The position numbers were made by a program, and so were the translations under genes. A model generated the notes under the pieces. The model was not told the origin of the DNA. It made no database searches and saw only the letters and a program-made list of their open reading frames with translations. DNA of 64,000 bases from Hyphomicrobiales bacterium (lineage in GTDB: Bacteria; Pseudomonadota; Alphaproteobacteria; Rhodospirillales; JACKKN01): positions 13,045 to 77,044 of the forward strand of contig JACKKN010000014.1 of the NCBI GenBank assembly GCA_024236415.1. Reading direction: 5' to 3'. This document shows positions 266 through 30,134 of this stretch, piece by piece (positions within the stretch are counted from its first letter, which is position 1; the number at the start of each line of letters is the position of its first letter).

Positions 266-1248
266 GGCCGCGGCGCCGCCTCCACCAGTTGGAAGTCCGG
301 CGCGTCCCAGCGCGGCGCCAGGAAACCCAGGACCAGGAACCAGGCCCCCACCAGGCGCACCGGGACGTAGTTCCGGTACCGGCCGCGCAGGGCCAGTTGC
401 GCGAAGTCCAGGGCCATCAGGGCCAGGGCGGCGGCGATGGCTGCCGCCTGCCCCGTGGCCAGGGCTGCCGCCAGCAGCGCCTGGGTCGCCAGCCCGGTGG
501 CGACGCCGGCGAAGACGCTGTGCCCGTGCCACAGGCGCCGGGGCGCCGCCAGGTGCTTGCGGATCAGGGCCCCCAGGGGCCGCGTGTACTGTTCGCGGTA
601 GAAGGCGCCGCGGCGGTCGGCGTGGTAGTAGGACACGGTGTGGTGGATGCCCATGACCATGGGCAGGGCCAGGATGCGGAACCGGCCGGACAGCCGGATG
701 GACATGTCCGTGTCCTCGCACCGGGTCAGGCGGGGGTCATATCGTGGGCGGGCCGCGGTCACCGCGGGGCCCAGCATGACGATGCCGTGGAACAGGTGGC
801 ACGGGCCGCCGCCGCCGACGGCGTAGCGGTCGCCGCCCTCGGCGATGCGCCGGTGCTGGCCGTCGTACAGCACCTCGGGCAGGCGGCCGAACACGATGTC
901 GGCGCGGTCCTCGGCCAGGGCGGCCAGGGCGGCGGCCACGAACCCGGGCTCGACGGCCACGTCGCCGTCGACGAGGAATACCGGGCCGGGCCCCGCCGCA
1001 TCCAGGATCACGTTACGGGTGGCAGACAGGTTGACGTGGCCTTGCATGGACAGCACGCGCGTATCGGCGCGGCCGCCGGCAAACGCCTGCATGGCGGCCA
1101 GGGTGCCGTCGGAGGACCCGGAGTCGACCAGCACGAACCGCACCCCCGGCACCCGCGCCGCCACCGCGGGCAGGGCGTCCAGGCAGGCGGTCAGGTGCGG
1201 AAGCCCGTTGCGGCAGGCGATTCCGACGGTCAGGGTCAGCTCGTCCAT
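262..1248 (-). CDS. family 2 glycosyltransferase (GT-A fold) with C-terminal membrane segments
   Basis: ORF 262..1779 trimmed to the ATG at 1248 (MDELTLTVGIACRNGLPHLTACLDALP...VRFVLVDSGSSDGT...FLVDGDVAVEPGF). These are typical GT2 N-terminal motifs including a DxD-like DGD, and the C-terminus is hydrophobic. The upstream 177 codons of the ORF are Arg/Pro-rich and run into the divergent gene, so I treat them as spurious. Confidence 0.8.
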   Translation of the reverse strand: MDELTLTVGIACRNGLPHLTACLDALPAVAARVPGVRFVLVDSGSSDGTLAAMQAFAGGRADTRVLSMQGHVNLSATRNVILDAAGPGPVFLVDGDVAVEPGFVAAALAALAEDRADIVFGRLPEVLYDGQHRRIAEGGDRYAVGGGGPCHLFHGIVMLGPAVTAARPRYDPRLTRCEDTDMSIRLSGRFRILALPMVMGIHHTVSYYHADRRGAFYREQYTRPLGALIRKHLAAPRRLWHGHSVFAGVATGLATQALLAAALATGQAAAIAAALALMALDFAQLALRGRYRNYVPVRLVGAWFLVLGFLAPRWDAPDFQLVEAAPRP

Positions 1249-1378
1249 GGCCCATGGTAGGCGGGCGCCGACGCCCCGGCAACGGTCTAGCGGGCACGGC
1301 ACGCGGCGTCTGTATCGCCCGGCGCCCCCGTGGTAGGGTCGCCGCTGACCACCACCGGACGGACCGTTCCCGATCGCC

Positions 1379-2503
1379 ATGCACGTCTGCCTGCTCTGCA
1401 CCGAAATCTTCCGCTGGGGGAAGTACGGCGGGTTCGGCCGCACGGCGCGCGCCGTGGGCCGCGCGCTGGCCAGCCGCGGGGTGCGGGTGTCGGCCGTGGT
1501 GCCCCTGCCGCGGGGCAGCCGCACGCCGGTGCGCGAGGAATTCGACGGCATCACCGTGCTCGGATATCCGCCGGCGGCGACCTGGGCCAGCCAGGACCTG
1601 TACCGCCAGGTCGACGCCGACCTGTACCACAGCATCGAACCCTTCACCGGCACCTGGCTGGCGCAGCGGGCCATGCCCGACCGGGCCCACGTGGTGACGT
1701 TCCAGGACCCGCGCCTGTTCCGCGACTGGTGGATCGAGTTCCGCCACCCGACCCGGGCCCGCCGGCAGACGGCGACCACCTGGCTGTACTACGAAAACCC
1801 CATGGTCCGCGCCGCCGTGCGCCGCTGCCACGGCTGCTCCGTCGCCGCGACCTCCCTGAGCGCCAAGGCCATGGCCAAGTACGGCCTGGACCGGGAGCCG
1901 GCGTTCCTGCCCACGCCGGTGGCCATCCCCGAGACGGTCGACAAGGCGGCGCGGCCCACGGCCTGCTTCGTCGGCCGGTTCGACCGGGTCAAGCGGCCGC
2001 AGGTGTTCTTCGACCTGGCCGCCCGCTGCCCGGACGTGGACTTCGTGGCCCTGGGCGGCGCCCAGGACGCGCGGTTCGAGCGCGAGCTGATGGACCGCGC
2101 GCCGCTGCCGCCGAACCTGACGCTGGCCGGGTTCATCAACCAGTTCGAGAGCGACGAGCTGAACCGCCACCTGGCGCGCAATTGGATCCTGGTCAACACC
2201 TCGGCCAAGGAGGGGCTGCCCAACGCCTTCGTCGAGGCCGCCGCCCACGGCTGCGCCATCCTCAGCGCCTTCGACCCCGACGGCTTCGCCTCGCGCTTCG
2301 GGCATCTGGTGACGGACGGCGACTACGCCGCCGGCCTGGCGGTCCTGCTGCGCGACGACCTGTGGCGCGAACGCGGCGCCGCCGGGCGCGATCACGTGCG
2401 CCGCCACTTCGCTGTCGATCTGGTCATGGACCGGTACCTGGATTTCTACGCCGCGGCGCTGGCGCGGGCCGGTCGCGGTTCGGTTCGCGCCGGCGCCATG
2501 TGA
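1379..2503 (+). CDS. family 1 (GT4-like, GT-B fold) glycosyltransferase
   Basis: 374-aa ORF. The N-terminus MHVCLLCTEIFRWGKYGGFGRTARAVGRALASRG is a typical GT4 start. The C-terminal half carries the EGLPNAFVEAAAHGCAIL motif (E-x7-E region of retaining GT-B enzymes). Divergent from the GT2 gene. Confidence 0.8.
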   Translation: MHVCLLCTEIFRWGKYGGFGRTARAVGRALASRGVRVSAVVPLPRGSRTPVREEFDGITVLGYPPAATWASQDLYRQVDADLYHSIEPFTGTWLAQRAMPDRAHVVTFQDPRLFRDWWIEFRHPTRARRQTATTWLYYENPMVRAAVRRCHGCSVAATSLSAKAMAKYGLDREPAFLPTPVAIPETVDKAARPTACFVGRFDRVKRPQVFFDLAARCPDVDFVALGGAQDARFERELMDRAPLPPNLTLAGFINQFESDELNRHLARNWILVNTSAKEGLPNAFVEAAAHGCAILSAFDPDGFASRFGHLVTDGDYAAGLAVLLRDDLWRERGAAGRDHVRRHFAVDLVMDRYLDFYAAALARAGRGSVRAGAM

Positions 2504-17662: not shown

Positions 17663-20317
17663 TCACGGGGCGCCGGCCGGGGGCTGCGACAGGCGCCGGG
17701 CCGCCACCTTGCGGCCGTAGTCCAGGGCGAAGATCAGCAGCGGCCCCAGCAGGGCGGCGCCATAGACCGGCATCGGAACCGGCCCCGTGCCCAGCACGAA
17801 ACCCACCGCCGGCACGTACAGGATGGCCCAGGACGCGGCCAGCTCGAACAGCACCCCGGCCACCAGCAGGGGGTTGGCGAAGGCGCCGCGGTCGATCCCG
17901 GTGCCGAAGCGCGAGCGGCGGCCGAACAGGTTGCCGATCTGCATCAACAGGATCGACGACAGGGCGATGCCGGTGGCCGACCGGTACAGGGGATCGTCGG
18001 TGGCCAGGGCATCGCCCCAGTGCCAGCCGCCGCCGTGCAGGACCCAGAAGAACAGGGACAGCGAGAACGCCGCCTCGATCAGCCCCAGGAAGCCGTAGGA
18101 GTGGGCGATCAGGCCGGCGGTCAACAGGCCCTGGTGCCGGTCGCGCGGCGGCTGGCGCATGACCTCGGGGTCCGGCTTCTCCTGGCCCAGGCTCATGGAC
18201 GGGATGATGTCGGTGCCCAGGTCGATGGCCAGGATCTGGATCACGGTCAGGGCCAGGGGCACGGGGAACAGGATGTACAGCAGGTAGGGGATGATCTCGG
18301 GCCCGTTGCTGACCAGCACGTAGTTGGTGAACTTGCGGATGTTGGCGAAGATGGTGCGCCCTTCCTCGATGCCGGCGACGATGGAGGCGAAGTTGTCGTC
18401 CAGCAGGATCACCTGGGCTGCCTCGCGGGCCACGTCGGTGCCGGTGCGGCCCATGGCCACGCCCACGTCCGCGGCCTTCAGGGCCGGCGCGTCGTTGACC
18501 CCGTCGCCGGTCACCGCCACCACCTTGTCCATCTGGTGCAGGGCGGCGACGATCTTCATCTTCTGCTCCGGCGTGGCGCGGGCGAACACGGCGGCGCCGG
18601 CCTGCAGCGCCGCCACCAGCTCGCCCTCGCGCAGGCGATCGAGTTCGTCGCCGGTGATGACCCGGTCCGCCCGGTCGTCGCCCTCGTCCAGGATGCCGGC
18701 GCGGCGGGCGATGGCGGCGGCGGTGTCCGGGTGGTCGCCGGTGATCATGACCATGGCGATCCCGGCGGCGCGGCACTGGGCGGCGGCGCCCGGCACCTCC
18801 GGCCGGATCGGGTCCTCCAGGCCCAGGAAGCCCAGCAGGGTCAGGTCGTGCTCCAGGGCGTCCTGGTCCATCCCGGCCTCGGCCGCCGCCAGGTCCCGCG
18901 CCGCCACGGCGATCACCCGATGGCCACGCCGGGCCAGGTCGTGGACCGTGGCCTCGGCGGCGGCCCTGTCGCCGGCCGACAGCAGGGGGGCGAGGGATTC
19001 CCAGGCGCCCTTGACCACGAAGCGCGCACCCGTGATGCCGGCCGAGCGCCGCTTTTCGACGTCGAAGGCGAAGTCGCGGGCCACGGCGGCGCGCAGGGCG
19101 GCCACGTCGCCGCCGTCGGCGGCCAGCCGCTCGGCGATGGCCACGTCCAGGGGGTCGCCCGAGAAGCCGCCGTCGCCCGCGGCCACGTCCGACGCCGCCA
19201 GGGCGGCGGCCAGCAGCGGGCCGGCCTCGGCCTCGCCGCCGTCGGCGCCGGCCAGGCGGGTCACGGTCAGGCGGTTGGCGGTCAGGGTGCCGGTCTTGTC
19301 GGTGCAGATGACGTGCACGGCGCCCAGGGCCTCGACCGCGTTCAGGCTCTTGACCAGGACGTTGCGCCGGGCCATGCGCAGGCTGCCCATGGCCAGGGAC
19401 AGGGTGAAGGTGGGCAGCAGCCCCTCGGGCACGTTGGCGACGATGATGCCCATCATGAACACCAGGCTGACCCACAGGGACGCCCCGGTGGCGACGCCGT
19501 AGGCGAAGAAGGTGGCGCCCAGCCCGACCGCGATCAGGGACAGCACCCGCACCATCTGCGCGGTCGAATGCTCCAGCGGCGACACGGTGCGCCGGATGTC
19601 GCGCGACAGCAGGGCGATGCGCCCGAACTGCGACCGGAACCCGGTGGCGAAGACCACCGCCCGGCCGCTGCCGCGCTGTACCGAGCAGCCGGCGAACAGG
19701 ATGTTGTCGGCCTCCAGCAGGGTGGCGTCCGAGGCCGTCGGGGTGCGCGGCAGGGGCAGGGACTCGCCGGTCAGGGGGGCGTTGTTGACCACCACGTCGG
19801 CGCCGGCGACCAGGCGCGCGTCGGCCGGGATGCGGTCGCCCTCGCGCAGGGCGACGACGTCGCCCGGCACCAGGTCCTCGGCCGGCACCGAGGATTCCGT
19901 GCCGCCGCGCAGCACGCGCACGTCGCGCGGCAGGAACTTGGCGATCTCCTCCATGGCCTTCTCGGCGCGGAACTCCTGGACGAAGCTGAACAGGGCGTTC
20001 AGCAGCGACACCCCGAACAGGGCGTAGCCCAGCACGTCCATGTTCTCGCCGGGCTGCACGGCCTCGCCGACGAAGCAGATGGCGGCGGCCAGGATCAGCA
20101 GCAGGGTGAAGAAGTTGGTGAACTGGCGCGCCAGCGAGCGCAGCCACCACAGGCCCTTGGGCGCCTCCAGGGTGTTGGGGCCGACCTCGGCCCGGCGCGC
20201 CGCCGCCTCGGCCGCGTCCAGTCCCTCGGGGCGGGAGCCCAGCAGGGCCGCCGCCTCTTCGGGCGCCACGTTCTGGATCTGGCTGCCGGGGGCCGGAAAG
20301 GGGGCGTCGCCGCTCAT
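17663..20317 (-). CDS. cation-transporting P-type ATPase, P2-like
   Basis: 884-aa ORF with ICTDKTGTLTANRL (phosphorylation motif), LTGES, VPEGLLPT in TM4, MITGDHPDTA and VTGDGVNDAPALKAADVGVAMG. There is no CPx heavy-metal motif. The start overlaps the upstream gene's stop (ATGA). Confidence 0.9.
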   Translation of the reverse strand: MSGDAPFPAPGSQIQNVAPEEAAALLGSRPEGLDAAEAAARRAEVGPNTLEAPKGLWWLRSLARQFTNFFTLLLILAAAICFVGEAVQPGENMDVLGYALFGVSLLNALFSFVQEFRAEKAMEEIAKFLPRDVRVLRGGTESSVPAEDLVPGDVVALREGDRIPADARLVAGADVVVNNAPLTGESLPLPRTPTASDATLLEADNILFAGCSVQRGSGRAVVFATGFRSQFGRIALLSRDIRRTVSPLEHSTAQMVRVLSLIAVGLGATFFAYGVATGASLWVSLVFMMGIIVANVPEGLLPTFTLSLAMGSLRMARRNVLVKSLNAVEALGAVHVICTDKTGTLTANRLTVTRLAGADGGEAEAGPLLAAALAASDVAAGDGGFSGDPLDVAIAERLAADGGDVAALRAAVARDFAFDVEKRRSAGITGARFVVKGAWESLAPLLSAGDRAAAEATVHDLARRGHRVIAVAARDLAAAEAGMDQDALEHDLTLLGFLGLEDPIRPEVPGAAAQCRAAGIAMVMITGDHPDTAAAIARRAGILDEGDDRADRVITGDELDRLREGELVAALQAGAAVFARATPEQKMKIVAALHQMDKVVAVTGDGVNDAPALKAADVGVAMGRTGTDVAREAAQVILLDDNFASIVAGIEEGRTIFANIRKFTNYVLVSNGPEIIPYLLYILFPVPLALTVIQILAIDLGTDIIPSMSLGQEKPDPEVMRQPPRDRHQGLLTAGLIAHSYGFLGLIEAAFSLSLFFWVLHGGGWHWGDALATDDPLYRSATGIALSSILLMQIGNLFGRRSRFGTGIDRGAFANPLLVAGVLFELAASWAILYVPAVGFVLGTGPVPMPVYGAALLGPLLIFALDYGRKVAARRLSQPPAGAP

Positions 20318-21156
20318 GCCGGCCCCCGGTACAGGGCCACGTCGCAGGGGGTGTCGCGCAGCAGCTCCTCCATGGGGTCGCCGAAGCGGAACAGGCGCGC
20401 CAGGCTTGCCCGCGGCGCCTCCAGGTAGATCAGGTCGCTGTCCAGGCGGCCGGCCTCGATCACCACCTGCTTGACCCAGTCGTCGGACACCCGCACCAGG
20501 GGATGGACGTGGGCCGGGTCCAGGCGCAGGGCGGCGGCGACCTCGGCGGCCACGGCCTGGGTCCGCTCCGACCCCGCGGCGCGCAGGCGCCCGGCGCGGC
20601 GCGCGTCCAGGCGGCGGAAGGCGACGCTGCCCAGGGTCACCACCCGCAGCACGTGGACGCGGCGGATGTCGGCCCCCAGCAGACCCAGGCAGGTCAGCCC
20701 CTGGCCCGGCTGGCGCGGGTGGTCGCCGACCGGGGCCAGGACCCGCCGCGCCACCCCCAGCAGGCCCGGCCGCACCACGCGCAGGGCCAGGGTGTGGAAC
20801 CGCCCGTGGGCCAGCAGTTGGGCCGAGATGGTGCCGGCCAGGTAGCCGCGCCGGCCGCCACGCACGCGCAGGCCGCAGACCAGCACCGTGCCGGGCCCCG
20901 GCGGCAGGCGCTCGACCAGGCCGCGGAACACGCCGCCGTGGACCGGGATGACCTCGACCTCGGCGCGCACGCCCTGGGCCGCGGCCTGGGCGGTCAGGGC
21001 CTCGAACCGGTCGGCCAGGGCCGGGGCCGGCAGGCCCACGTCCTCGCCGTACAGGACCGTCAGGACGCGCTCGGGCGTGTGCGCCGCCATGCGCACGGCG
21101 TAGCGGGCGATCCAGTCGCCGTTGACCGAGCCGTCATAGGCCAGGAAGACGGCCAT
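20314..21156 (-). CDS. tandem universal stress protein (UspA-like) domain protein
   Basis: 280-aa ORF made of two ~130-aa halves, each with a USP-like layout (MAVFLAYDGSVNGDWIARYAVRMA...VLVCG and RVLAPVGDH...CDVALYR). The assignment is pattern-based only. Confidence 0.55.
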   Translation of the reverse strand: MAVFLAYDGSVNGDWIARYAVRMAAHTPERVLTVLYGEDVGLPAPALADRFEALTAQAAAQGVRAEVEVIPVHGGVFRGLVERLPPGPGTVLVCGLRVRGGRRGYLAGTISAQLLAHGRFHTLALRVVRPGLLGVARRVLAPVGDHPRQPGQGLTCLGLLGADIRRVHVLRVVTLGSVAFRRLDARRAGRLRAAGSERTQAVAAEVAAALRLDPAHVHPLVRVSDDWVKQVVIEAGRLDSDLIYLEAPRASLARLFRFGDPMEELLRDTPCDVALYRGPA

Positions 21157-21162
21157 GGCCCG

Positions 21163-21720
21163 CTAGTCGTCCCGGACGCGGAAGGTGGCGTGGCACTCGC
21201 GGCAGACGGCGGTGATCTCCTGCAGGCGTTCCAGCACCCGGCGGTGGTCGTCCAGGCTGGGCGGGTCATAGGCGAACCAGGCCGCCTCGGCGAACCGGCC
21301 GGCGGCGGCGTGGAAGCGGATGGCCAGGACGCGGAACCGCTTGGCCGCGTCCACGTCGCCCGGGTCGGTCACGTTCAGGTCCGGGTCGCGGGCGATGGCC
21401 TTCTCCATGAACCGCCGGCGCACGGTCAGCACGTCCTCCTCGGACATGCCGCGGGCCAGCAGGGATTCCCAGGTCTTGTGGCCGAAATCCATGTGGAAGG
21501 CGGCGACCTTGGCGGCGCGCCGGAAATCGCCGGCCGCCACGGCGGCGACGATGTCGTCCAGGTTGCCCAGGTGGGCGCGCATGTCGGCCAGGAACTGGCC
21601 GCGCACCGCGTCGGGCAGGTTCAGGTTCTCGCGCCCGCCGCCCGCGGCCGGCGCCGTCCCGGCACCGCCCGCCAACACCAGCAGGGCCAGCAGCAGTCCC
21701 TTACCCAGTCCAGCACGCAT
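21163..21720 (-). CDS. class II c-type cytochrome (cytochrome c'/c-556-like), exported
   Basis: ORF 21163..21831 trimmed to the ATG at 21720 (GGAGGGG RBS; MRAGLGKGLLLALLVLAGGAGTAPA is a signal peptide). A single CxxCH (CRECH) lies 11 residues from the C-terminus of a ~150-aa helical mature protein, the arrangement typical of class II cytochromes c. Confidence 0.55.
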   Translation of the reverse strand: MRAGLGKGLLLALLVLAGGAGTAPAAGGGRENLNLPDAVRGQFLADMRAHLGNLDDIVAAVAAGDFRRAAKVAAFHMDFGHKTWESLLARGMSEEDVLTVRRRFMEKAIARDPDLNVTDPGDVDAAKRFRVLAIRFHAAAGRFAEAAWFAYDPPSLDDHRRVLERLQEITAVCRECHATFRVRDD

Positions 21721-21746: not shown

Positions 21747-22436
21747 TCACTGGCCCGGCACCAGGGCCTGGCGCTGCTGTTCGGCGAAGCGGGCGATGGC
21801 CGCCGCCCCGGCGCGGTCGCAGGGCACGCACAGCAGGGCGTTGACCTCGTCCACCGCCTCGGGCGACAGCGGCCGGGCGGTGACCAGTCCCAGGTAGGTT
21901 CCCGCCAGGCGCAGGTCCGGGTCAACCTTCTCCAGCTCCTCCTGGTAGTTGGCCAGCAGGTACAGGGGCGATTTCCAGGCCGGGCTGTGGCCGGGCGCGA
22001 TGGTGGCGCGCACGGCGTCCAGCCGGCCCAGGTTGCGCCCGGCCATGCGGTCGCCGGCGTCCTTGCGGGCGGGGGTGTCGGCGCACCAGCTGCGGTCGGC
22101 GGCGGCCAGGCGCGGCGCCTGGGGCCCGGCGCCGGTGACCGGCCCGGCCGCCGGAGCCGAGGCCGTGGGGACGCCGCCGTCGCCGCCGTCCCCGCCGCCG
22201 GAGTACCGGTTGCGGTTGGTGGGTCCGGGACCCGTGCCCTGGCCCTGGTTGCCGTGGCCGGCGGTGGGGCCGGGCCCGGCGCCCAGGCCCTGGGCCGCGG
22301 CCGGAACCGCGGTCCAGGCGACGGCCACCAGGGCTAGGGCCAACAGGGCGGCGAGCGACCGGCGGGCGGAGAGGCGTGGCGCCGTCCGCGTGGGGGAGCG
22401 GGCACTTCCGTCTCGGTCTTGGTCGCGACGTGTCAT
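21747..22436 (-). CDS. exported Gly-rich hypothetical protein, distant member of the family encoded by the two upstream genes
   Basis: ORF 21747..22463. I prefer the ATG at 22436 (GGAGAGG, 6-nt spacer), but the GTG at 22463 overlapping the upstream stop is an alternative. It has a Tat-like SARRSLAALLALALVAVA leader and a Gly-rich stretch (GHGNQGQGTGPGP...GGGDGGDGG). The C-terminus has degenerate echoes of the paralogue domain (GRNLGRLDAVRA, KSPLYLLANYQEEL). Confidence 0.55.
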   Translation of the reverse strand: MTRRDQDRDGSARSPTRTAPRLSARRSLAALLALALVAVAWTAVPAAAQGLGAGPGPTAGHGNQGQGTGPGPTNRNRYSGGGDGGDGGVPTASAPAAGPVTGAGPQAPRLAAADRSWCADTPARKDAGDRMAGRNLGRLDAVRATIAPGHSPAWKSPLYLLANYQEELEKVDPDLRLAGTYLGLVTARPLSPEAVDEVNALLCVPCDRAGAAAIARFAEQQRQALVPGQ

Positions 22437-22459
22437 GGCGCACCTCTCCGCCGCACCGG

Positions 22460-23380
22460 TCACTCGCCGTGGCCGGCCAGGATGCCGGCGCGGACCTTGT
22501 CGGCCTTGGCGGCCAGGGCCGCCGTCTCGTCGGCGGTCAGGCTGAGGCCGAAAATCGTGTTCAGGGCGGTCACCGAGTCGGTGCCGATGGGGATCGACTT
22601 GTCCGACGCCGAGCCCAGGAAGATGGCCGCCAGGTCGAGCACCGAGGCCGGCGTCACGCCGGGCAGGGCGGTCTGCCGGTTGGCCAGCAGGTCCTTGTAG
22701 AGGCCCAGGTTCTGCAGCGGCGAGTCGATGCGCGGCGTGGTGGCGTAGGCGCCGGCCAGGGTGTCGGCAGCGCTTTCGGCGGTCGATTCATACAGCGCCG
22801 CCATGGTGCCGTCCCAGTTCGCCAGGGCCTCGTCCAGGGCGCGCTGGATCACGTGGCCCGGGGACCGCGCCACGTTCAGGCGGCCCAGTTCCACCTCGGG
22901 GATGCCGCCCTTGGCCCAGGCCGGGGCGCCGCCGCGGCCGCCGGACTCGTGGCCGGCCGCGCCGGGGTCGGAATCGTGCGCCGCACCGTGGCCGCCCTGG
23001 CCACCCTTGCCGCCCTTGCCCTCGTGGGTCCCTTCATGTTCGGTGTCGGCCTGGTCCTCGTGCTCGTGCTCCGAGCCGGCGGCGCCGGGCACGTGCGACT
23101 TGCCGCCGCCACCCTCGTGGCCGCTTTCCGGGTCGTGCTGGCTGCCCTTGCCCTTGTGGCCGGCGCCCTTGCGCCCGCCCAGGTGCTTGCCGCCCGACCC
23201 GTGCGCGCCGCGGCCGCCGGGCGCGGCGGCCTGGGCGGTCGGGCCGTCGGCCATCCGCACCACCGGCCCGCCGGGGCCGGGGTCGATGTCGATGCCGAGC
23301 ACCCCCGGTGCCATCAGCGCGAACAGGCCGGCGCCGCCCAACAGGGCCGCCCGGCGGAATCCGTCAGTGAATGTCTTCAT
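22460..23380 (-). CDS. exported Gly/His-rich hypothetical protein (paralogue B)
   Basis: 306-aa ORF with an RR-containing leader (MKTFTDGFRRAALLGGAGLFALMAP). The Gly/Lys/Glu/His low-complexity region has 13 His in roughly 95 residues. The conserved C-terminal ~150 aa are shared with 23469..24257 and end in GHGE. Confidence 0.7.
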   Translation of the reverse strand: MKTFTDGFRRAALLGGAGLFALMAPGVLGIDIDPGPGGPVVRMADGPTAQAAAPGGRGAHGSGGKHLGGRKGAGHKGKGSQHDPESGHEGGGGKSHVPGAAGSEHEHEDQADTEHEGTHEGKGGKGGQGGHGAAHDSDPGAAGHESGGRGGAPAWAKGGIPEVELGRLNVARSPGHVIQRALDEALANWDGTMAALYESTAESAADTLAGAYATTPRIDSPLQNLGLYKDLLANRQTALPGVTPASVLDLAAIFLGSASDKSIPIGTDSVTALNTIFGLSLTADETAALAAKADKVRAGILAGHGE

Positions 23381-23468
23381 GGATCGCCTCCCGTTCCAGG
23401 GGCCGGCCGCGCTGGAGCGGCCGGCACCGGTGTCGGGCGGCGCGCAGGCGCCGCCCGCGGACGGAAGG

Positions 23469-24257
23469 CTATTCGCCGTGACCCGTGTTGATGGCGGCCC
23501 GCACGTCCTCGGCCATGTCGGCCACGGCGGCCACGTCGGCCTCGCTCATCGTCAACCCGAAGATGGTGTTGATGGCGATCACCGTGTCCGTGGTCACGGC
23601 CACCGTCTTGTCCGAGGCCGATCCCAGCAGGATCGCCGCCAGGTCAAGGGTCGACGCCGGGGTGACGCCGGGCAGGGGCGAGGTGCCGCTGGTCAGCAGG
23701 TCGCGGTACAGGCCCAGGTTCTCCAGGGGCGAATCGATGCGGACCACGTTGTCGTAGTCCGTTTCCAGCAGGTTGGCGGCGGCTTCGGCCGTCAGCTCGT
23801 AGAACGACTCCATGGTGGCGGTGTCGAAGTTCTTCAGCGCCTCCTCGACCGCGCTGTCCAGCACGTGCGCGGGGGCGCGGGCGACGTTCAGGCGGCCCAG
23901 CTCGACCTCCGGGATGCCCTCCTGGGCCCAGACGGGCTTGCCGCCGCCGCCGTCGGGCTTGCCGGCGCCGGAGCGCGGACCCTTGCCGTCGCTGTCGTCA
24001 CCGGGGCCGCCCTGGCCCTTGCCGATTCCGCCGATGGCGCCGGGGCCGTTGCCCTGGCCGCCGCCGCCGGAACCCATGGCCTGCTTGCCTTTTCCGCCGC
24101 CGCCGCCGTCACCGTCCTCGTCGGCCAGGGCCGTGCCGGTCAGGCTGAGGCCGCTGTCCGTGAAGTGGGCGACGAGCAGGGGCGTGGCCACCAGGGCCAG
24201 CGCCACGGCGGTGGAAACGAGAAGCCTGTTGAGGATTAATTTTTCTGTGGTTTTCAT
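23469..24257 (-). CDS. exported Gly-rich hypothetical protein (paralogue A)
   Basis: ORF 23469..24290 trimmed to the ATG at 24257 (GGGAGA, 6-nt spacer; MKTTEKLILNRLLVSTAVALALVATPLLVA). It has a G/K/D-rich low-complexity stretch. The C-terminal domain carries GIPEVELGRLNVAR, RIDSPLENLGLYRDLL, LPGVTPASTLDLAAILLGSASDK, NTIFGL and a terminal GHGE. Confidence 0.7.
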   Translation of the reverse strand: MKTTEKLILNRLLVSTAVALALVATPLLVAHFTDSGLSLTGTALADEDGDGGGGGKGKQAMGSGGGGQGNGPGAIGGIGKGQGGPGDDSDGKGPRSGAGKPDGGGGKPVWAQEGIPEVELGRLNVARAPAHVLDSAVEEALKNFDTATMESFYELTAEAAANLLETDYDNVVRIDSPLENLGLYRDLLTSGTSPLPGVTPASTLDLAAILLGSASDKTVAVTTDTVIAINTIFGLTMSEADVAAVADMAEDVRAAINTGHGE

Positions 24258-24570
24258 CGTGCTTCTCCCTTCTCGATCGGAAGAGCCCACAGCGCGTCGC
24301 GACGGGAGTCCGCCATTCGTGGGTCAGAAGCACGGGCCGCTCGCCGCTGGCGAGCCTGGCATCTTCTCGAGCGAACCCTTTCAGGTTCAACGTCAATTGT
24401 ACCATTTATCATAAATTATCGGTCCGCTAATATGACAGACCAAGTCGACAGGTTTTGCACGCCTGCCATGCCATAATCGCGCGGACGAATTTTTGTTGCG
24501 GGGCCCACGGCATTTTTCAAGGGGCCCGGCGGGCCGGGCCCGCCAGACAGCTTGAACGAGGGGGAATTCC

Positions 24571-27069
24571 ATGCACCGCGGGCTCCGGCGCCCAGTCCCG
24601 AATCGCCTTGCGGCCGCCGTCCTGCTGGGCGCCGCCGCGGCGCTGGCCGCGGGCGCCGCCGCGGCCGGGGTGGCGCCGCCGTTCACCGGCCACTACGCCG
24701 GCGCCCAGGTCGGCTTCGGCGCCCTGGAGACGGACCTGGACGGCCCGCGCGCCGGCACCACGGCCGCCGACGACACCAGCGCCAACGGTTTCGTGGGCGG
24801 CCTGTTCGTGGGCTACGGCCGCGGGTTCGGCAGCCTGTACCTGGGCGGCGAGCTGGAGGCCGCCGCCGCCGACATCGAATCGGCGCAGCGCCTGGCCGGG
24901 GGCGGACGCCTGCAGGACCTGCGCAAGGGGCCCGAGGCCGCGGCCACCCTGCGCGCCGGCTACCTGGTGGACGGCCGCACGCTGCTCTTTGGCCGCGCCG
25001 GCCTGGCCTGGGGCCGGTTCGCCGCCGACATCCGCCCCGCCGACGGCTCCATCCACCGCACCGAGCAGGACCTGTGGGGCCTGCGATTCGGCCTGGGCGG
25101 CGAGTTCGCGGCCAGCCCGCACCTGGCCCTGCGGCTGGAATACGTGCACACCCTGTGGGACGCCTTCGGCCAGCCGTGGAGCGAGACCGGCGTGGCCGGG
25201 GTCGACACCTACGACACCGGCGAGGGCACGGTGCGGGTGGGCCTGGCCTGGCACTTCACGCCGCTCTACGACGGCGCGGCCGATGACGAACCGGGATACG
25301 TCCAGGCCCGGCGCGGCGCCGCGGGCGCCTACGTGGGCCTGCAGACCGGCTACCAGATCCTGTCCGTGCGCCAGAAGGGGCCGCGCGGCGCCGCCGACCT
25401 GTCGAAGAGCGACGACCTGGGCCGCGGCGGGTTCCAGGGCGGCCTGTTCGGCGGCTTCGGCACCTTCTTCGACCGCCTGTACGTGGGCGCCGACTTCGAG
25501 GGCAGCGGTTCGGACACCGAGCTGGAGTCGTCGCGCCTGCCGGGCAGCCGGGTGACCCGGGTGACCAAGCGCTACGACGTGGCGGCGGCGGCGCGGCTGG
25601 GCTACCTGCTGACCCCGGGGACCCTGATCTACGGCCGCCTGGGCGTGGCGGCGGCGCGGTTCAACACCGACGTGATCCTGGCCGACGGCCGCGCCTACGA
25701 CCAGGACGACACCCAGATCGGCATCCGCGCCGGCGCCGGCGCCGAGGTCGCCCTGGGCGACCCGTGGTTCCTGCGGCTGGACTATGCCTACACCCGCTAC
25801 AACGGCTACGAGGTGGACCGCACCAGCGCCGGGCAGCTCGCCGTCGGCGACGTGCACCTGGAGAACTTCGAGAACGAGGAATCCGCCTTCCGGGTCGGCC
25901 TGGGCTACCGCTTCGGCCAGCCGCAGCCGCGCGGCCGCACCACCGCCGCGGCCACCGGCCTGGCCCTGGGGTCGTTCACCGTGCACCCGACCCTGACCCT
26001 GTCCGAGACCTACGACGACAACATCTTCTCGACCCGGGCCATGACTGTGGACGACTTCGTCACCGTGATCACCCCGGCCCTGGCCGTCGAGTCGCAGTGG
26101 GACCGGCACCTGTTGAAGGTCAACGCCGACGCCGGCGTGGTCCGCTACGCCGACAACGGGGCCGAGGACCACGAGAACTACTCGGCCGCCGTCGACGGCC
26201 GCTACGACCTGACCGACAACGCCAACCTGTTCGCCGGCGCGGCCTATGCCCTGGAGCACGAGGGCCGCGAGTCGGCCGACGACGTGAGCGGCAGCGAGCC
26301 CACGCGGTTCGACCGGGTCAACGCCTATGCCGGCGCTTTCGCCCGCCGCGGCAACGCCTCGGTGCGGGCCGGCGGCACCTTCCGCCGCCTGGACTTCGAC
26401 GACGTGCCGGCCACCGGCGGCATGATCAACAACGACGACCGCGACCGCCGGGTCTACACCGGCGGCGTCTGGGCCGGCTATGTGGTGATGCCGCGGGTCG
26501 AGCTGTACGGCCAGGCGGCGGTGGACGTCCGCCGCTACGACTCGGCGGTGGACGACGCCGGCTTCGACCGCGATTCCGACGGCCAGCGGTACCTGGGCGG
26601 GGTCAAGGTGGAGCTGCGCCGCGGGGTCAAGGCCGACCTGTACGCCGGCTACCTGACCCAGGACTACGACGACCCCAGGCTGGCCGACGTGACCGCACCC
26701 CTGATCGGCGCCAAGGTCGAGATCCCGGCCACCGCGGCCACCACCATCACCGGCTACCTGGACCGGACCCTGTCCGAGACCACCCTGGCCGGGGCCTCGG
26801 GCTCGGTCTACACCTCGGTCGGGCTCAAGGTGGGGCACGACCTGACCCCGGACCTGCGCCTGAACCTGGATGCGTCTTACGGCAACGACGACTACCGCGG
26901 CATCAAGCGCAGCGACGATATCCTGCAACTGGGCCTGGGCCTGAAATACGGCGTCACCCCCAACCTGTCCCTGGGCGCCAGCTACGGCTACCGCAACCGG
27001 GACTCGGACGTGCTGGGCCAGAACTACAGCGGACAGCAGGTGTCGCTGTTCGTGGAAGGGGCCTTCTAG
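24571..27069 (+). CDS. outer-membrane protein with three consecutive beta-barrel-type modules
   Basis: 832-aa ORF with a signal peptide (LAAAVLLGAAAALAAGAAAAG). Two Omp25/OmpA-beta-barrel-like modules end in GLAWHF (aa 229, nt 25257) and GLGYRF (aa 448, nt 25914). A ~380-aa module follows with alternating-hydrophobic strands, resembling the putative beta-barrel porin-2 type, and ends in the C-terminal VEGAF. GAGGGGGA RBS. Confidence 0.8.
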   Translation: MHRGLRRPVPNRLAAAVLLGAAAALAAGAAAAGVAPPFTGHYAGAQVGFGALETDLDGPRAGTTAADDTSANGFVGGLFVGYGRGFGSLYLGGELEAAAADIESAQRLAGGGRLQDLRKGPEAAATLRAGYLVDGRTLLFGRAGLAWGRFAADIRPADGSIHRTEQDLWGLRFGLGGEFAASPHLALRLEYVHTLWDAFGQPWSETGVAGVDTYDTGEGTVRVGLAWHFTPLYDGAADDEPGYVQARRGAAGAYVGLQTGYQILSVRQKGPRGAADLSKSDDLGRGGFQGGLFGGFGTFFDRLYVGADFEGSGSDTELESSRLPGSRVTRVTKRYDVAAAARLGYLLTPGTLIYGRLGVAAARFNTDVILADGRAYDQDDTQIGIRAGAGAEVALGDPWFLRLDYAYTRYNGYEVDRTSAGQLAVGDVHLENFENEESAFRVGLGYRFGQPQPRGRTTAAATGLALGSFTVHPTLTLSETYDDNIFSTRAMTVDDFVTVITPALAVESQWDRHLLKVNADAGVVRYADNGAEDHENYSAAVDGRYDLTDNANLFAGAAYALEHEGRESADDVSGSEPTRFDRVNAYAGAFARRGNASVRAGGTFRRLDFDDVPATGGMINNDDRDRRVYTGGVWAGYVVMPRVELYGQAAVDVRRYDSAVDDAGFDRDSDGQRYLGGVKVELRRGVKADLYAGYLTQDYDDPRLADVTAPLIGAKVEIPATAATTITGYLDRTLSETTLAGASGSVYTSVGLKVGHDLTPDLRLNLDASYGNDDYRGIKRSDDILQLGLGLKYGVTPNLSLGASYGYRNRDSDVLGQNYSGQQVSLFVEGAF

Positions 27070-28553
27070 CCGCGCTTGCGCGCGCGCCAGGCGGACCAGG
27101 CCAGGGTGCCGGCGATGGCCAGCAGCAGGGCGCCGCTGATGGGGCGGGTGGCGAACACCGTCACGTCCATGTCGTTGGCCACCAGGCCGTTGCGCAGGTT
27201 GACCTCGATGATGGGGCCCAGCACCAGGCCGATGACGATGGGCGCCATGGGGAAGCCGAACCGGGCCAGGACGTAGCCCAGCACCCCCAGCACGGCGATC
27301 AGCCCGACCTCGAACGGCGCGTTGTTGATGGCGAACCCGCCGGTGGCGCACAGCACGGCGATGAGGGGCAGCAGCACCCGCGGCGGGATGGTCAGGATGC
27401 GCGGCAGCACCCGCCGCGCGCCCAGGCCCAGGACCAGGGTCATCAGCGCCGCCACCAGCAGGATGATCAGGATCTGGGCGAACAGGTCGCCGTGCTCGAT
27501 GATGAAGAACGGGCCCGGGTCGATGCCCTGGATCAGCAGGGCGCCGATCAGCACCGCCGTCACCGTGTCGCCGGGGATGCCCAGGGTCAGCAGCGGCACC
27601 AGGGCGCCGCCGGTGACCGCATTGTTGGCGGACTCGGCGGCGATCACGCCGCGGGTGGCGGCCGCCTCCTCGCCCAGGGCTTCCGCCTTGGCGCGGCCCG
27701 ACTGGCCGAAGGCGATCCACGACGCGATGGTCGGCCCGGTGCCCGGCAGGATGCCGATGAAGGTGCCGATCAGCGAGCTTTTCAGCAACAGCCAGCCGTT
27801 GCGCAGCAGGATGCCCGGCAGGCGCGCCAGGGCCAGGACCTGCTGCGGCGGCAGGGCCGCCGCGTCCTGGCGGGCGGCCGCCTGCAGCAGCATCTCGGCG
27901 ACGGCGAAGAAGGCGATCAGGGCCGGGATCAGGGGCACGCCGCCCTGCAACTCGTACAGCCCGAAGGTGAAGCGGGTGGTGCCGCCCACCTCGTCGATGC
28001 CGATGGTGCCCAGAAACATGCCCATGGCGGCGCCCATGATGCCCTTGACCAGGGACCCGCCCGACACGGCGGCGACGCAGATCAGCCCGAACAGGCCGAG
28101 GGCGAAATACTCGACCGAGGTGAACTCGAGGGCGAAGTTGGCCAGGTTGGGCGCCGCCACCATGAGGATGGCCAGGGAGATGAGGCCGCCCAGCACCGAG
28201 GCCACCACCGCCAGGCTGATGGCCAGGTCGGCCTTGCCGGCCCGGGCCAGGCGGTACCCGTCCAGCGCCGTGGCGGCGTTGCCGGGCGCGCCCGGGGTGT
28301 TGATCAGGATCGCCGGGATGGAGCCGGCGAAGTAGCCGGCCGAATAGATGCCCAGCAGCAGGGCCATGGCGACCTCGAAGCTGGCGCCGAAGGTCAGCGG
28401 CGTGGCGATGGCCACGCCGGTGGTGGCGGTCAGCCCCGGCGAGGCGCCGAACACGAAGCCCACCAGCACGCCGACCAGGACCCACAGCAGGATCTTGGCC
28501 TGAAACACGGCGGCGGCGCCGGCGAGGATGGTGTCGAGCGGGATCAGGTCCAC
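27066..28553 (-). CDS. tctA: tripartite tricarboxylate transporter, large permease
   Basis: ORF 27066..28745 trimmed to the GTG at 28553 (GAGGG RBS, 10 nt downstream of the tctB stop; VDLIPLDTILAGAAAVF...). About 495 aa, multi-pass. TctA-type motifs such as GASPGLTATTGVAI and GILPGTGPTIASWIAF are present. The upstream part of the ORF overlaps tctB out of frame. Confidence 0.85.
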   Translation of the reverse strand: MDLIPLDTILAGAAAVFQAKILLWVLVGVLVGFVFGASPGLTATTGVAIATPLTFGASFEVAMALLLGIYSAGYFAGSIPAILINTPGAPGNAATALDGYRLARAGKADLAISLAVVASVLGGLISLAILMVAAPNLANFALEFTSVEYFALGLFGLICVAAVSGGSLVKGIMGAAMGMFLGTIGIDEVGGTTRFTFGLYELQGGVPLIPALIAFFAVAEMLLQAAARQDAAALPPQQVLALARLPGILLRNGWLLLKSSLIGTFIGILPGTGPTIASWIAFGQSGRAKAEALGEEAAATRGVIAAESANNAVTGGALVPLLTLGIPGDTVTAVLIGALLIQGIDPGPFFIIEHGDLFAQILIILLVAALMTLVLGLGARRVLPRILTIPPRVLLPLIAVLCATGGFAINNAPFEVGLIAVLGVLGYVLARFGFPMAPIVIGLVLGPIIEVNLRNGLVANDMDVTVFATRPISGALLLAIAGTLAWSAWRARKRG

Positions 28554-28563
28554 GGCCCGGCCC

Positions 28564-28998
28564 TCAGAACCACACCGGCAGCAGCACGGTGAAGCCGTAG
28601 CGGAACAGGACGTAGACGCCGGCCGCCGTGGCCGCCGGCAGGACCAGCAGCTCCAGCGGCCGGCGCGACCCCAGCACCCACATGGCGGCGGCCATGAAGG
28701 CGAAGGTGCCCAGGCGGAAGTCCATGATCCGGAAGGTGAGGGCATAGGCCAGGAACAGGGCGGCGAAGGCCAGGCCGCGGCGGTCCAGCAGGCGCCCGAC
28801 CACGGCGCCCAGCGCCGCCGCCCCGGGGCGCAGGGCCAGGGCCAGGCCGCCGGCCAGCAGCACGGCGGCCAGCAGGTAGGGGAAGAAGCGCGCCGACAGG
28901 GTCGGCTGGCTGTCCAGGATGTCCACCCGCGCGGTCGCCGCCGCCAGGGCGAGCCCGGCGGCGGCGGTGGCGATTCCGGCCAGTCTGTCAGCCTTCAT
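28564..28998 (-). CDS. tctB: tripartite tricarboxylate transporter, small permease
   Basis: 144-aa, four-TM ORF lying between the tctC and tctA genes (MKADRLAGIATAAAGLALAAATARV...FFPYLLAAVLLAGG...). Size, position and hydrophobicity fit TctB. Confidence 0.7.
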   Translation of the reverse strand: MKADRLAGIATAAAGLALAAATARVDILDSQPTLSARFFPYLLAAVLLAGGLALALRPGAAALGAVVGRLLDRRGLAFAALFLAYALTFRIMDFRLGTFAFMAAAMWVLGSRRPLELLVLPAATAAGVYVLFRYGFTVLLPVWF

Positions 28999-29028
28999 GG
29001 GTGTGGTCCGGTGGCGGCGGGCGGCCGC

Positions 29029-30003
29029 CTACTTCATCAGACCGATTTCCTTCAGCACCACCGAATGCTTGGCCACGTTGGCGTCGATGCGCTGCTGGAA
29101 GGCGGCGCCGTCCAGGAACGCCTCGTGCAGGTTGAACTTCTTGTACAGCGCGCGGGTCTCGTCGGTGTTGGCCACCTTGGCCACCTCCATGCGCAGCTTG
29201 TCGACCACCGCCTGGGGCGCGCCCTTGTTGGTCAGCAGGCCGAACCAGACGGCGACGGTGAAGTCGTAGCCCTGCTCCTTGAAGGTGGGCGAGTCGGGCA
29301 GGTAGGGCACCCGCGTGTCGGCGGCGACGCCGATCACCCGCAGCTTGCCGGCCTTGGCCAGGGAGGTGTAGTTGGCGGCGCCGACGAACACGAAGTCGAC
29401 CTCGCCGGACAGGGTCTTGGTCACCGCGCCCTTGCCGCCGCGGCCGCCGATGTGGGTCATCTTGATGCCCTGGTCCTTGGCGAAGATTTCCATGTTGATG
29501 TGCTGGGTGGCGCCGGGGCCGGGGGTCGAATACTTGATCTTGCCGGGAGCCGCCTTGGCCGCGTCGACGATGTCCTTGACCGACTTGAACGGGCTGTCGG
29601 CCTTGACCGCCAGGCCGATGGGCGACTCGACCAGCTGGGCGATGGGCACGAAGTCGTCGGTCTTGTAGCCCGGGTCCTTGATCAGCGGCCGCGCCGTCAG
29701 GGCGCCGGTGGACCCCATCAGCAGGGTGTAGCCGTCGTGGGCCGCCTTGTTGGCCTCGGCGGTGCCCTTGCCGCCGCCGGCGCCGGGAATGTTCTTGACG
29801 ATGAACGGCACGCCCATGGCATCCTTCAGGCGGTCGGCGATGACGCGGGCCGACCCGTCCAGGGCGTCGCCGGCGCCGAAGGGCACGATGATCTCGACCG
29901 GCTTCTCGGGGTAGCCGGCGGCCATGGTCGGCGCGGCGGTGAAGGGGGCGGCGGCGGCCGCGGCGATCCAGGCGGCGGCGGCCAGTTTCTTCAGGTGTCC
30001 CAT
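29029..30003 (-). CDS. tctC: tripartite tricarboxylate transporter substrate-binding protein (Bug family)
   Basis: ORF 29029..30105 trimmed to the ATG at 30003 (GGGAGAGG RBS; MGHLKKLAAAAWIAAAAAAPFTAAPTMAAGYPEKPVEIIVPFGAGDALD...NIPGAGGG). These are the canonical Bug/TctC N-terminal motifs. Confidence 0.85.
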   Translation of the reverse strand: MGHLKKLAAAAWIAAAAAAPFTAAPTMAAGYPEKPVEIIVPFGAGDALDGSARVIADRLKDAMGVPFIVKNIPGAGGGKGTAEANKAAHDGYTLLMGSTGALTARPLIKDPGYKTDDFVPIAQLVESPIGLAVKADSPFKSVKDIVDAAKAAPGKIKYSTPGPGATQHINMEIFAKDQGIKMTHIGGRGGKGAVTKTLSGEVDFVFVGAANYTSLAKAGKLRVIGVAADTRVPYLPDSPTFKEQGYDFTVAVWFGLLTNKGAPQAVVDKLRMEVAKVANTDETRALYKKFNLHEAFLDGAAFQQRIDANVAKHSVVLKEIGLMK

Positions 30004-30087
30004 CGGGCCTCTCCCTTGTGTCGGTGGCGTTTCGTGTCGGCGGCGCGGCGTGGTGACTCGGCCGTTGACCGGGGCGCATAACTCATT

Positions 30088-30102
30088 TATACATGTATAT
30101 AC
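30088..30102. promoter_or_regulatory. candidate HutC-type operator in the tctC / hutC-like divergent promoter region
   Basis: A perfect 12-bp palindrome TATACATGTATA (30088-30099) overlaps GTATATAC (30095-30102), which fits the GT-n-TA-n-AC core described for HutC-subfamily GntR operators. It lies in a short, unusually AT-rich intergenic segment (30004-30134). Confidence 0.45.
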
Positions 30103-30134
30103 CAATTATCAAAACGGGTCAAACGGAAACTCCA

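Follow-up and report, generated by a model that had tools for sequence, protein, structure and literature searches.

An uncharacterised proteobacterial family of exported helical proteins with glycine-rich, often histidine-rich tethers, associated with outer-membrane barrel genes and an FNR-type box

Histidine-rich metal-binding segments or loops are carried by outer-membrane copper proteins of the PcoB/CopB type and by periplasmic metal binders of the ZnuA type. The ZraP/Spy/CpxP proteins are small, exported, all-α proteins of envelope stress regulons; some members have His-rich flexible segments, and ZraP, which is His-rich, binds Zn. Barrels of Pfam family PF10082 (BBP2_2) include EpsL and the PEP-CTERM-associated outer-membrane proteins (OMPs). 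In alphaproteobacteria, FNR regulons include OmpW, universal stress proteins (USPs) and a heavy-metal P-type ATPase, the outer-membrane protein OmpW being one of the core members (Dufour et al., 2010, PMC2908626; Ebert et al., 2017, PMC5398030), and in Rhodopseudomonas palustris the porin-partner operon PioAB is under FixK control under anoxia (PMC3050613). Here we analyse three consecutive minus-strand genes, A, B and C, that lie divergent to an OMP gene in a 64,000-nucleotide stretch of contig JACKKN010000014.1 from a Hyphomicrobiales bacterium (the whole of which we call the window), and that encode predicted exported proteins, each with a Gly-rich tether followed by a helical domain. The helical domain has no known family or fold relative, despite confident structural models. 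New here are a family-wide FNR-type box, a recurring pairing of His-poor and His-rich copies, and the lack of any fold relative; we regard A, B and C as an uncharacterised family rather than as a demonstrably new kind of system. The family is not described in the reports on alphaproteobacterial FNR regulons (PMC2908626, PMC5398030), and full-text searches of the literature on FnrL/FixK regulons, on BBP2_2 and on His-rich and Gly-rich periplasmic proteins returned no account of it.

Each of the described systems resembles the A/B/C module in part. As with OmpW, whose induction at low oxygen means that FNR remodels the outer membrane, the module comprises a small outer-membrane barrel gene with a TTGAT-N4-ATCAA box upstream; however, the barrels here belong to PF13505 and PF10082, not to the OmpW family (PF03922), and are accompanied by two or three exported helical proteins that are absent from the OmpW papers. 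As with PioAB, an outer-membrane barrel is paired with periplasmic partners and with an FNR-family regulator, but A, B and C have no haem motifs, and the match of the window barrel to MtrB_PioB is sub-threshold (E 1.3e-4; 21 bits vs. 23). The C-terminal barrel of the window OMP belongs to the same Pfam family as EpsL and the PEP-CTERM-associated OMPs, but the protein falls under the NCBIfam cut-offs for TIGR03014 and TIGR03016 (47 vs. 275 and 72 vs. 90.85, respectively), and no polysaccharide or exosortase genes are kept near A-family loci. The likeness to ZraP, Spy and CpxP ends at general character: neither LTXXQ nor Metal_resist is matched in Pfam at E ≤ 1, Foldseek matches no chain of the PDB, although the structures of those proteins would be among its entries, A has a seven-helix topology, and the A family is associated with outer-membrane barrels and an FNR-type box, not with Cpx/Zra control. 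PcoB/CopB and ZnuA share with the module the combination of a barrel or periplasmic protein with a disordered His-rich segment, and some of the partner barrels here carry such segments at their N-termini; by contrast, there is no CopB or ZnuA Pfam match, the tethers of A, B and C are not Met-rich, the His-rich segment lies mostly on a separate helical-domain protein, and metal binding is putative, from composition.

A sequence-only reading of the window had described the three genes as a tandem family in which A and B share long runs, about half identical by eye, and in which B carries 13 His residues and A none in the corresponding stretch. The open reading frame (ORF) listing agrees with the coordinates of all three genes, and A and C are not chance ORFs, since A has at least 767 relatives at E ≤ 1e-3 and an exhaustive HMMER search places C in a family of 154 representative clusters. 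By BLASTP, A and B are identical at 100/166 positions (60%; E 4e-64; A 98-262, B 142-306), the alignment contains every run quoted in the sequence-only reading (GIPEVELGRLNVAR, RIDSPLxNLGLYxDLL, LPGVTPASxLDLAAIxLGSASDK, NTIFGL and the terminal GHGE), and a hidden Markov model (HMM) of the A domain scores B at E 7.8e-72. Composition counts agree with the Gly-dominated low-complexity stretch reported for each protein (48%, 34% and 30% Gly in A, B and C, respectively) and with the contrast in His content, the 13 His residues of B falling within 85 residues and the equivalent stretch of A having 0.

The relatives of A are ~250-290 amino acids (aa) long, and all are unnamed or labelled 'hypothetical'. 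A scan of a genome collection with one genome per species places them at 214 genomic loci in Alpha- and Gammaproteobacteria, ranging over Hoeflea, Acidocella, Thioclava, Sulfitobacter, Thiohalobacter and others; a search of a plasmid collection returned zero matches. An alignment of 41 A-family members (A1) shows a fixed order: a hydrophobic N-terminus, an AxA-type site near residue 44, a Gly-rich stretch of variable sequence, in many members a short motif GGPxxDSDxKGP after it, a near-invariant motif with the consensus PVWAQEGIPEVELGRLNVxRxP (PVWAQEGIPEVELGRLNV), and, immediately thereafter, the conserved domain, which terminates in GHG(E). W110, P116, E119, L120, G121, R122, R127 and P129 are invariant across the 41 sequences. 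In the AlphaFold model made from A1, residues 130-262 form seven helices with a predicted local distance difference test score (pLDDT) of 92-98, as compared to 40-57 for the linker and 55-68 for the motif; across the AlphaFold models, pLDDT is <50 over linkers, in agreement with the reading of these regions as disordered Gly-rich tethers. Since the near-invariant motif is strongly conserved yet its fold is not confidently predicted, we infer that it is a candidate partner-binding segment. In gammaproteobacterial loci there is, in addition, an extra paralogue of 370-440 aa upstream of the His-rich copy (L005 8299-9414, L019 8352-9530, L032 8275-9456, L062 8325-9587 and others), which has a distinct Cys-containing N-terminal region, DDSDSDRPxWAGG...GDxYGDLxV..RD..TG.P, and aligns to positions 12-132 of the 158-position A-domain profile.

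The claim that the C-terminal domain resembles no described family has withstood every search made. A, B and C have no near-threshold match in Pfam or NCBIfam, and scans of all 41 A-family and 15 C-family members at E ≤ 1 reveal no recurrent family. A search of PDB sequences with the A1 profile (hmmsearch) returns low-complexity noise only (best E 0.16). Foldseek comparison of the models with the PDB gives, for A, a best E of 0.72 with a TM score of at most 0.25 and, for C, a best E of 1.6 with no fold match. Globins, the diphtheria toxin T domain and the spidroin N-terminal domain were considered as fold relatives, but Foldseek probabilities were ≤0.14, and we take these matches as noise.

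The three proteins had been presented as sharing one domain of ~150 aa. This description stands for A and B; C retains only the last ~80-110 residues, with five helices in place of seven. BLASTP detects no significant similarity of C to A or B. An alignment of C-family sequences from related loci (A2) gives the consensus NLxRLxAAQxxLAPGF...LLAxYQEELEK..PD..LAAxYLAL..PIT....VNALLCV, with C118 and C203 invariant, and comparison of the A1 and A2 profiles by hhalign yields a probability of 91.6% (E 8e-7; 76 columns; A 173-259, C 154-228), or 90.6% with trimmed profiles; extension of the comparison toward the N-terminal motif of C yields nothing confident. HMM searches cross-match in both directions: the C HMM gives weak matches to many A-family proteins in their C-terminal part, B among them (E 0.004), and the A HMM weakly matches many C-family representatives. 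The results of hhalign and the two-way cross-matches indicate that the 'degenerate echoes' of the domain noted in C are real remote homology, confined to the C-terminal half of the domain. In the AlphaFold model, C has five helices at residues 133-225 (pLDDT 83-98), which match five of the seven helices of A, the other two being absent. We conclude, from profiles and models, that C is a remote, shortened paralogue and not an equal third member.

To assess the export route, we used a rule-based check for a hydrophobic core (9 or more residues out of 12), an [AVST]xA site and a Tat-like RR motif. In A, B and C alike, the N-terminal segment is hydrophobic and leads into an AxA-type site, as it does in most A-family relatives: among 117 A-family N-termini, the core is present in 107 and the site in 108, at a median position of 44. 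None of A, B and C has a lipobox Cys. The RR residues that had been noted in two of the three proteins are present in B (FRRAALL) and C (SARRSLAAL), in a context that departs from the Tat consensus S/T-R-R-x-F-L-K, which precedes the h-region. They are not a family trait, since a Tat-like twin-arginine motif occurs in 1/117 A-family and 6/120 C-family N-termini, and these counts rule out Tat export as a family property. For the C family, the invariant Cys pair further favours Sec export followed by oxidation in the periplasm. By this check, A, B and C are predicted to be Sec-type exported proteins, and the Tat-like reading of the RR residues is not supported, Tat export being unlikely.

To define the genomic neighbourhood, we compared the window proteins with 80 related loci by tblastn. 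Homologues of the window OMP are present in 30 loci; homologues of the cytochrome c'-like protein, the USP, the P-type ATPase, the membrane fusion protein and the RND (resistance-nodulation-division) protein are present in 0, 0, 2, 0 and 1, respectively, and conserved linkage to these five is therefore rejected. De novo clustering of neighbouring ORFs reveals, in 29 loci, chiefly of Rhodobacterales and Rhizobiales, a further family of barrels, ~260 aa long, that includes a Hoeflea protein annotated as PF13505 (OMP_b-brl). A BBP2_2 barrel, an OMP_b-brl barrel or both lie within 4 kb in 59/79 loci, and in 48 of the 62 loci for which both flanks are complete; in Pfam-annotated contexts, a barrel is adjacent in 9/9, and the remaining flanking genes are all different. 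Thus, of the neighbours proposed to co-occur with the family, the divergent OMP does so, and the cytochrome, the USP and the ATPase do not. A metal-transporter theme among neighbours was likewise rejected, the CNNM/CorC gene beside the barrel in L092 not being recurrent. The three closest relatives of the window locus keep the order OMP or FNR-like regulator, A, B-like, C-like, with different downstream genes (GGDEF-EAL, GATase, SoxA/TsdA cytochromes).

The window OMP matches PF10082 at E 4.3e-98 (329 bits, vs. a gathering threshold of 23.7; aa 460-829) and PF13505 at E 4.5e-34 (118.6 bits), and fusions of the two barrel types in the opposite order, 855-858 aa long, occur in gammaproteobacterial relatives (L084 3113-5680, L093 503-3079). 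Since fusion occurs in either order, the two barrel types are likely to act together; multi-barrel fusions in both domain orders are, in themselves, unusual. Small Rhodobacterales barrels beside A-family genes have, after the signal peptide, their own N-terminal Gly/His/Asp/Glu-rich segments, for example GGHEDGGHEDGSEGGGHEDGDHEEGGG (L028 10557-11618, L030 10473-11564, L044 4728-5798), which by their position would sit in the periplasm. Of the proteins of the module, the partner barrel alone clearly belongs to known families (PF10082 and PF13505).

To determine whether the module carries a regulatory signature, we searched for TTGAT-N4-ATCAA, the consensus of FNR/FixK/Dnr-type regulators, with at most one mismatch, from −300 to +60 relative to the first gene of the module, using dinucleotide-preserving shuffles as the control. 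The box is present in 46/79 non-redundant loci, in 14 of them as a perfect match, as compared to 4.9 on average and at most 11 in shuffles. Box positions peak between −500 and 0 of the first A-type gene (35 hits over 87 loci, vs. 1-6 per bin elsewhere), with a second peak at loci where a C-type gene comes before A. In the closest relatives, L089 and L090, the box is a perfect match and stands 140-160 bp upstream of A. A regulator of the CRP/FNR family with an N-terminal Cys motif (1077-1802, minus strand; C10, C21, C24) is encoded in L090 divergently from the A homologue, with two FNR-type boxes in the intergenic region between the two genes; in Hoeflea, the barrel gene set and the A gene each have boxes ahead of them. 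The placement of these boxes suggests that the module usually, in most lineages, lies within an FNR/FixK-type low-oxygen regulon.

The window itself differs in this respect. The region between A and the OMP gene (24258-24570) has no FNR-type box, even with 2 of 8 core mismatches allowed (TTGA-N6-TCAA); low-oxygen control therefore applies at the level of the family and is not established for the window locus. The window neighbours (cytochrome c'-like protein, USP) are at least compatible with low-oxygen physiology. The only near-consensus box near the genes, TTGATGGCGATCAC (1 mismatch), is found at 23569-23582, within the 3' end of A and 189 bp upstream of the start of B; the window as a whole contains 3 boxes, vs. 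~2 expected in 64 kb by our estimate, which is chance level. The AT-rich part of the A/OMP promoter region contains a perfect 6-1-6 palindrome, ATTTATCATAAAT, at 24404-24416, which is unique in the 64-kb window, with 0 expected in shuffles. This palindrome may be an operator for another regulator, in place of the FNR box of the relatives; since it is unique in the window, no regulon can be inferred from it.

The His content of the linker varies widely within the A family. Among 101 relatives with a linker of ~80 aa, 54 have at least 5 His residues, typically 9-15, in patterns such as GGHSGGHS...GHDSGHDHD...GHGHSHD. Where two full-length copies are in tandem, a His-poor copy comes first and a His-rich copy second in the window and in L041, L045, L050, L052, L070, L072 and L073. 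In a neighbour-joining tree, the copies from the window, L089 and L090 cluster by type, and the Rhodobacterales pairs cluster by lineage. The tree suggests either that the His-poor/His-rich pairing has been re-created several times or that it is held by concerted evolution; in both cases the pairing is under selection.

We tentatively propose, as a reading that may well prove wrong, that the module acts in the envelope at low oxygen, with the helical domains working with the barrels and the Gly/His tethers binding metal ions. Each of A, B and C would be exported by its Sec-type signal peptide, after which come a disordered Gly-rich tether of 60-100 residues, in a His-poor form (A) or a His-rich form (B), and, at the C-terminus, a compact helical domain of ~130 residues, shortened in C. 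The proteins would then work with BBP2_2 barrels, 8-stranded OMP_b-brl barrels or both, which in the window are fused into a single 832-aa protein; the helical domains, the invariant motif or both might dock on the barrels from the periplasmic side. The Gly/His/Asp tethers could capture or buffer divalent metals (Cu, Ni, Zn, Fe(II)) that cross the outer membrane, and the captured metals could serve metal-dependent anaerobic or microaerobic enzymes. The hint of metal binding comes from the 54/101 linkers with at least 5 His residues, from the recurrent His-poor/His-rich order, and from the Gly/His/Asp/Glu-rich segments of the barrels themselves.

Several observations weigh against this proposal. 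Gene adjacency is the sole ground for docking of the domain on the barrel, and about a quarter of loci (20/79) have no barrel within 4 kb. The A/B/C domain has no experimental or homology link to metals; 22/101 linkers, window A among them, have 0-1 His; and no metal transporter or metal regulator recurs among the neighbours (P-type ATPase in 2/80 loci, CNNM/CorC once). The promoter region of the window locus, moreover, lacks the FNR-type box.

A structural or stress role in the envelope would account for several of the same observations, and we consider it unlikely rather than implausible. According to this hypothesis, the outer membrane is tethered or cushioned at low oxygen, the domain binds barrels, the Gly-rich regions are spacers or a hydrated gel, and His enrichment reflects pH buffering or is incidental, with no specific handling of metals. 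The linkers are long, Gly-dominated and disordered, those with 0-1 His suit a spacer, the A family is linked to abundant small OMP_b-brl barrels, and published work attributes envelope restructuring to FNR regulons, OmpW being one instance (PMC2908626, PMC5398030). However, the His-poor/His-rich pairing and the His/Asp/Glu-rich extensions of the barrels suggest ligand chemistry and not a plain spacer, and nothing in A, B or C points to peptidoglycan binding or to a lipid anchor, there being no lipobox Cys and no recurrent Pfam match.

Poorer prospects attach to a second alternative, namely that A, B and C are cargo, secreted through the BBP2_2 barrel to form a Gly-rich surface matrix or adhesin layer at low oxygen. 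BBP2_2 relatives (EpsL and the PEP-CTERM-associated OMPs) are tied to surface-polymer export, and the window OMP has sub-threshold matches to TIGR03016 and TIGR03014; Gly/Gln/Ser-rich low-complexity segments, for example in L065, resemble those of matrix proteins; and the barrel and A/B/C appear to be co-regulated, given the FNR-type boxes ahead of both gene sets in Hoeflea and further gammaproteobacterial boxes placed consistently with the promoter of the barrel gene. Against secretion, the sole adjacent barrel in Rhodobacterales is the small OMP_b-brl protein of ~260 aa, and 8-stranded barrels have a pore too small for protein export. In addition, the Gly/His-rich segments of the barrels are N-terminal and would thus be periplasmic, and A, B and C contain no repeats or amyloid-type motifs.

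The tight, conserved adjacency to barrels and the presence of an all-helical domain behind a conserved flexible motif would also be expected if A, B and C served the adjacent barrels as dedicated chaperones or assembly factors in the periplasm, in the manner of Skp or Spy. We consider this very unlikely: neither in sequence nor in fold do the proteins resemble Spy, CpxP, ZraP, Skp or SurA, a factor of this kind would not be expected to come as two or three paralogues per barrel or to have His-rich tethers, and 20 loci have no barrel within 4 kb. The last alternative, that A, B and C are accessories of the local cytochrome c'/USP/P-type ATPase cluster with a respiratory or cation-pump role, draws on the shared strand and tight spacing of these genes (27 bp from C to the cytochrome gene, a 4-bp overlap of the USP and ATPase genes) and on the USP and P-type ATPase of the alphaproteobacterial FNR regulon (PMC2908626; a heavy-metal ATPase, unlike the type II enzyme of the window), but is largely refuted by the counts of 0, 0 and 2 in 80 loci and by the different downstream genes of the closest relatives, and has, in our view, hardly any chance of being correct. 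The probability that remains beyond the metal-handling proposal and these four alternatives is left unallocated.

In its boldest form, which we think improbable, the metal-handling proposal would make the multi-barrel OMP and A/B/C an unprecedented, FNR-switched outer-membrane machine for low oxygen, in which the PVWAQEGIPEVELGRLNV motif inserts into or gates the barrel, and Gly/His tethers resembling prion octarepeats draw a metal in short supply (copper for cbb3 oxidase or for denitrification enzymes, for example) across without TonB, or thread to the surface. Such a machine, if real, would be a new transport principle on a new fold. The metal-handling proposal in its simpler form, if true, would mean that the low-oxygen (FNR/FixK) response of many marine, soil and wastewater proteobacteria has a component that has so far gone unrecognised, would be relevant to how metals for anaerobic and microaerobic respiration are gathered or buffered at the outer membrane, and would define a new structural family together with an unusual class of fused multi-barrel OMPs. 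Even without a function, the family offers a clear and inexpensive experimental handle, in that there are a predicted regulator, partner and ligand class, and cultured carriers, among them Hoeflea sp. BAL378, Thioclava sediminum, Sulfitobacter sp. HGT1, Acidocella aminolytica DSM 11237, Ciceribacter selenitireducens and Thiohalobacter thiocyanaticus.

Table 1. Coordinates, strands and supporting evidence for the A/B/C genes, their parts and the flanking features of the window
Feature	Position	Strand	Description and basis
Gene A	23469-24257	−	Predicted exported His-poor full-length member, 262 aa; ORF listing, homologues, AlphaFold
A, signal peptide (aa 1-45)	24123-24257	−	Hydrophobic core, then ALA|DE; rule-based prediction
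A, disordered Gly/Lys/Asp linker (aa 46-107)	23937-24122	−	48% Gly, 0 His; pLDDT 40-57
A, near-invariant motif PVWAQEGIPEVELGRLNVARAP (aa 108-129)	23871-23936	−	Conserved in 41-sequence alignment; pLDDT 55-68
A, helical domain (aa 130-262)	23472-23870	−	7 helices, GHGE at end; AlphaFold pLDDT 92-98
Gene B	22460-23380	−	His-rich full-length paralogue, 306 aa; 60% identical to A over 166 aa
B, Gly/His-rich linker (aa 54-151)	22928-23221	−	34% Gly over residues 54-152; 13 His at positions 60-144
B, conserved motif and helical domain (aa 152-306)	22463-22927	−	BLASTP against A; composition
Gene C	21747-22436	−	Shortened remote paralogue, 229 aa; Cys118 and Cys203 invariant in family alignment
C, linker (residues 50-116)			30% Gly, 1 His; composition count
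C, helical domain (aa 117-229)	21750-22088	−	5 helices, probable disulfide; AlphaFold
Divergent A/OMP promoter region	24258-24570		No FNR-type box; palindrome at 24404-24416
Partner OMP gene	24571-27069	+	832 aa; fusion of two OMP_b-brl barrels and a BBP2_2 barrel; encoded divergently
Downstream same-strand genes	17663-21720	−	Cytochrome c'-like (21163-21720), tandem USP (20314-21156), type II P-type ATPase (17663-20317); local, not conserved partners

Beyond the module itself, the window and a related locus hold several minor features. A 20-nt GC-rich inverted repeat at 24516-24556, 80% complementary and with a 1-nt spacer, is located 15 bp upstream of the OMP start codon and could form a hairpin in the 5' untranslated region; an Rfam scan of the window returned no match, and hence no riboswitch or leader RNA. 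The cytochrome c'-like gene, which starts 27 bp past the stop codon of C, encodes an exported protein of 185 aa whose CRECH haem motif is C-terminal and whose match to PF01322 is sub-threshold (E 0.055); this product looks like a divergent class II cytochrome c. The tandem-USP and type II P-type ATPase genes overlap by 4 bp (20314-20317), which suggests that they are translationally coupled. In the Hoeflea locus L081 (5216-6675), two proteins are encoded ahead of the barrel gene, one of DUF6656 and one of 196 aa that weakly matches Inhibitor_I36 (beta-gamma-crystallin-like), with a second FNR-type box between them. Finally, on the minus strand at 27066-30105, three ORFs of 559, 144 and 358 aa have, by eye, the character of a tripartite tricarboxylate transporter of the TctA/TctB/TctC type.

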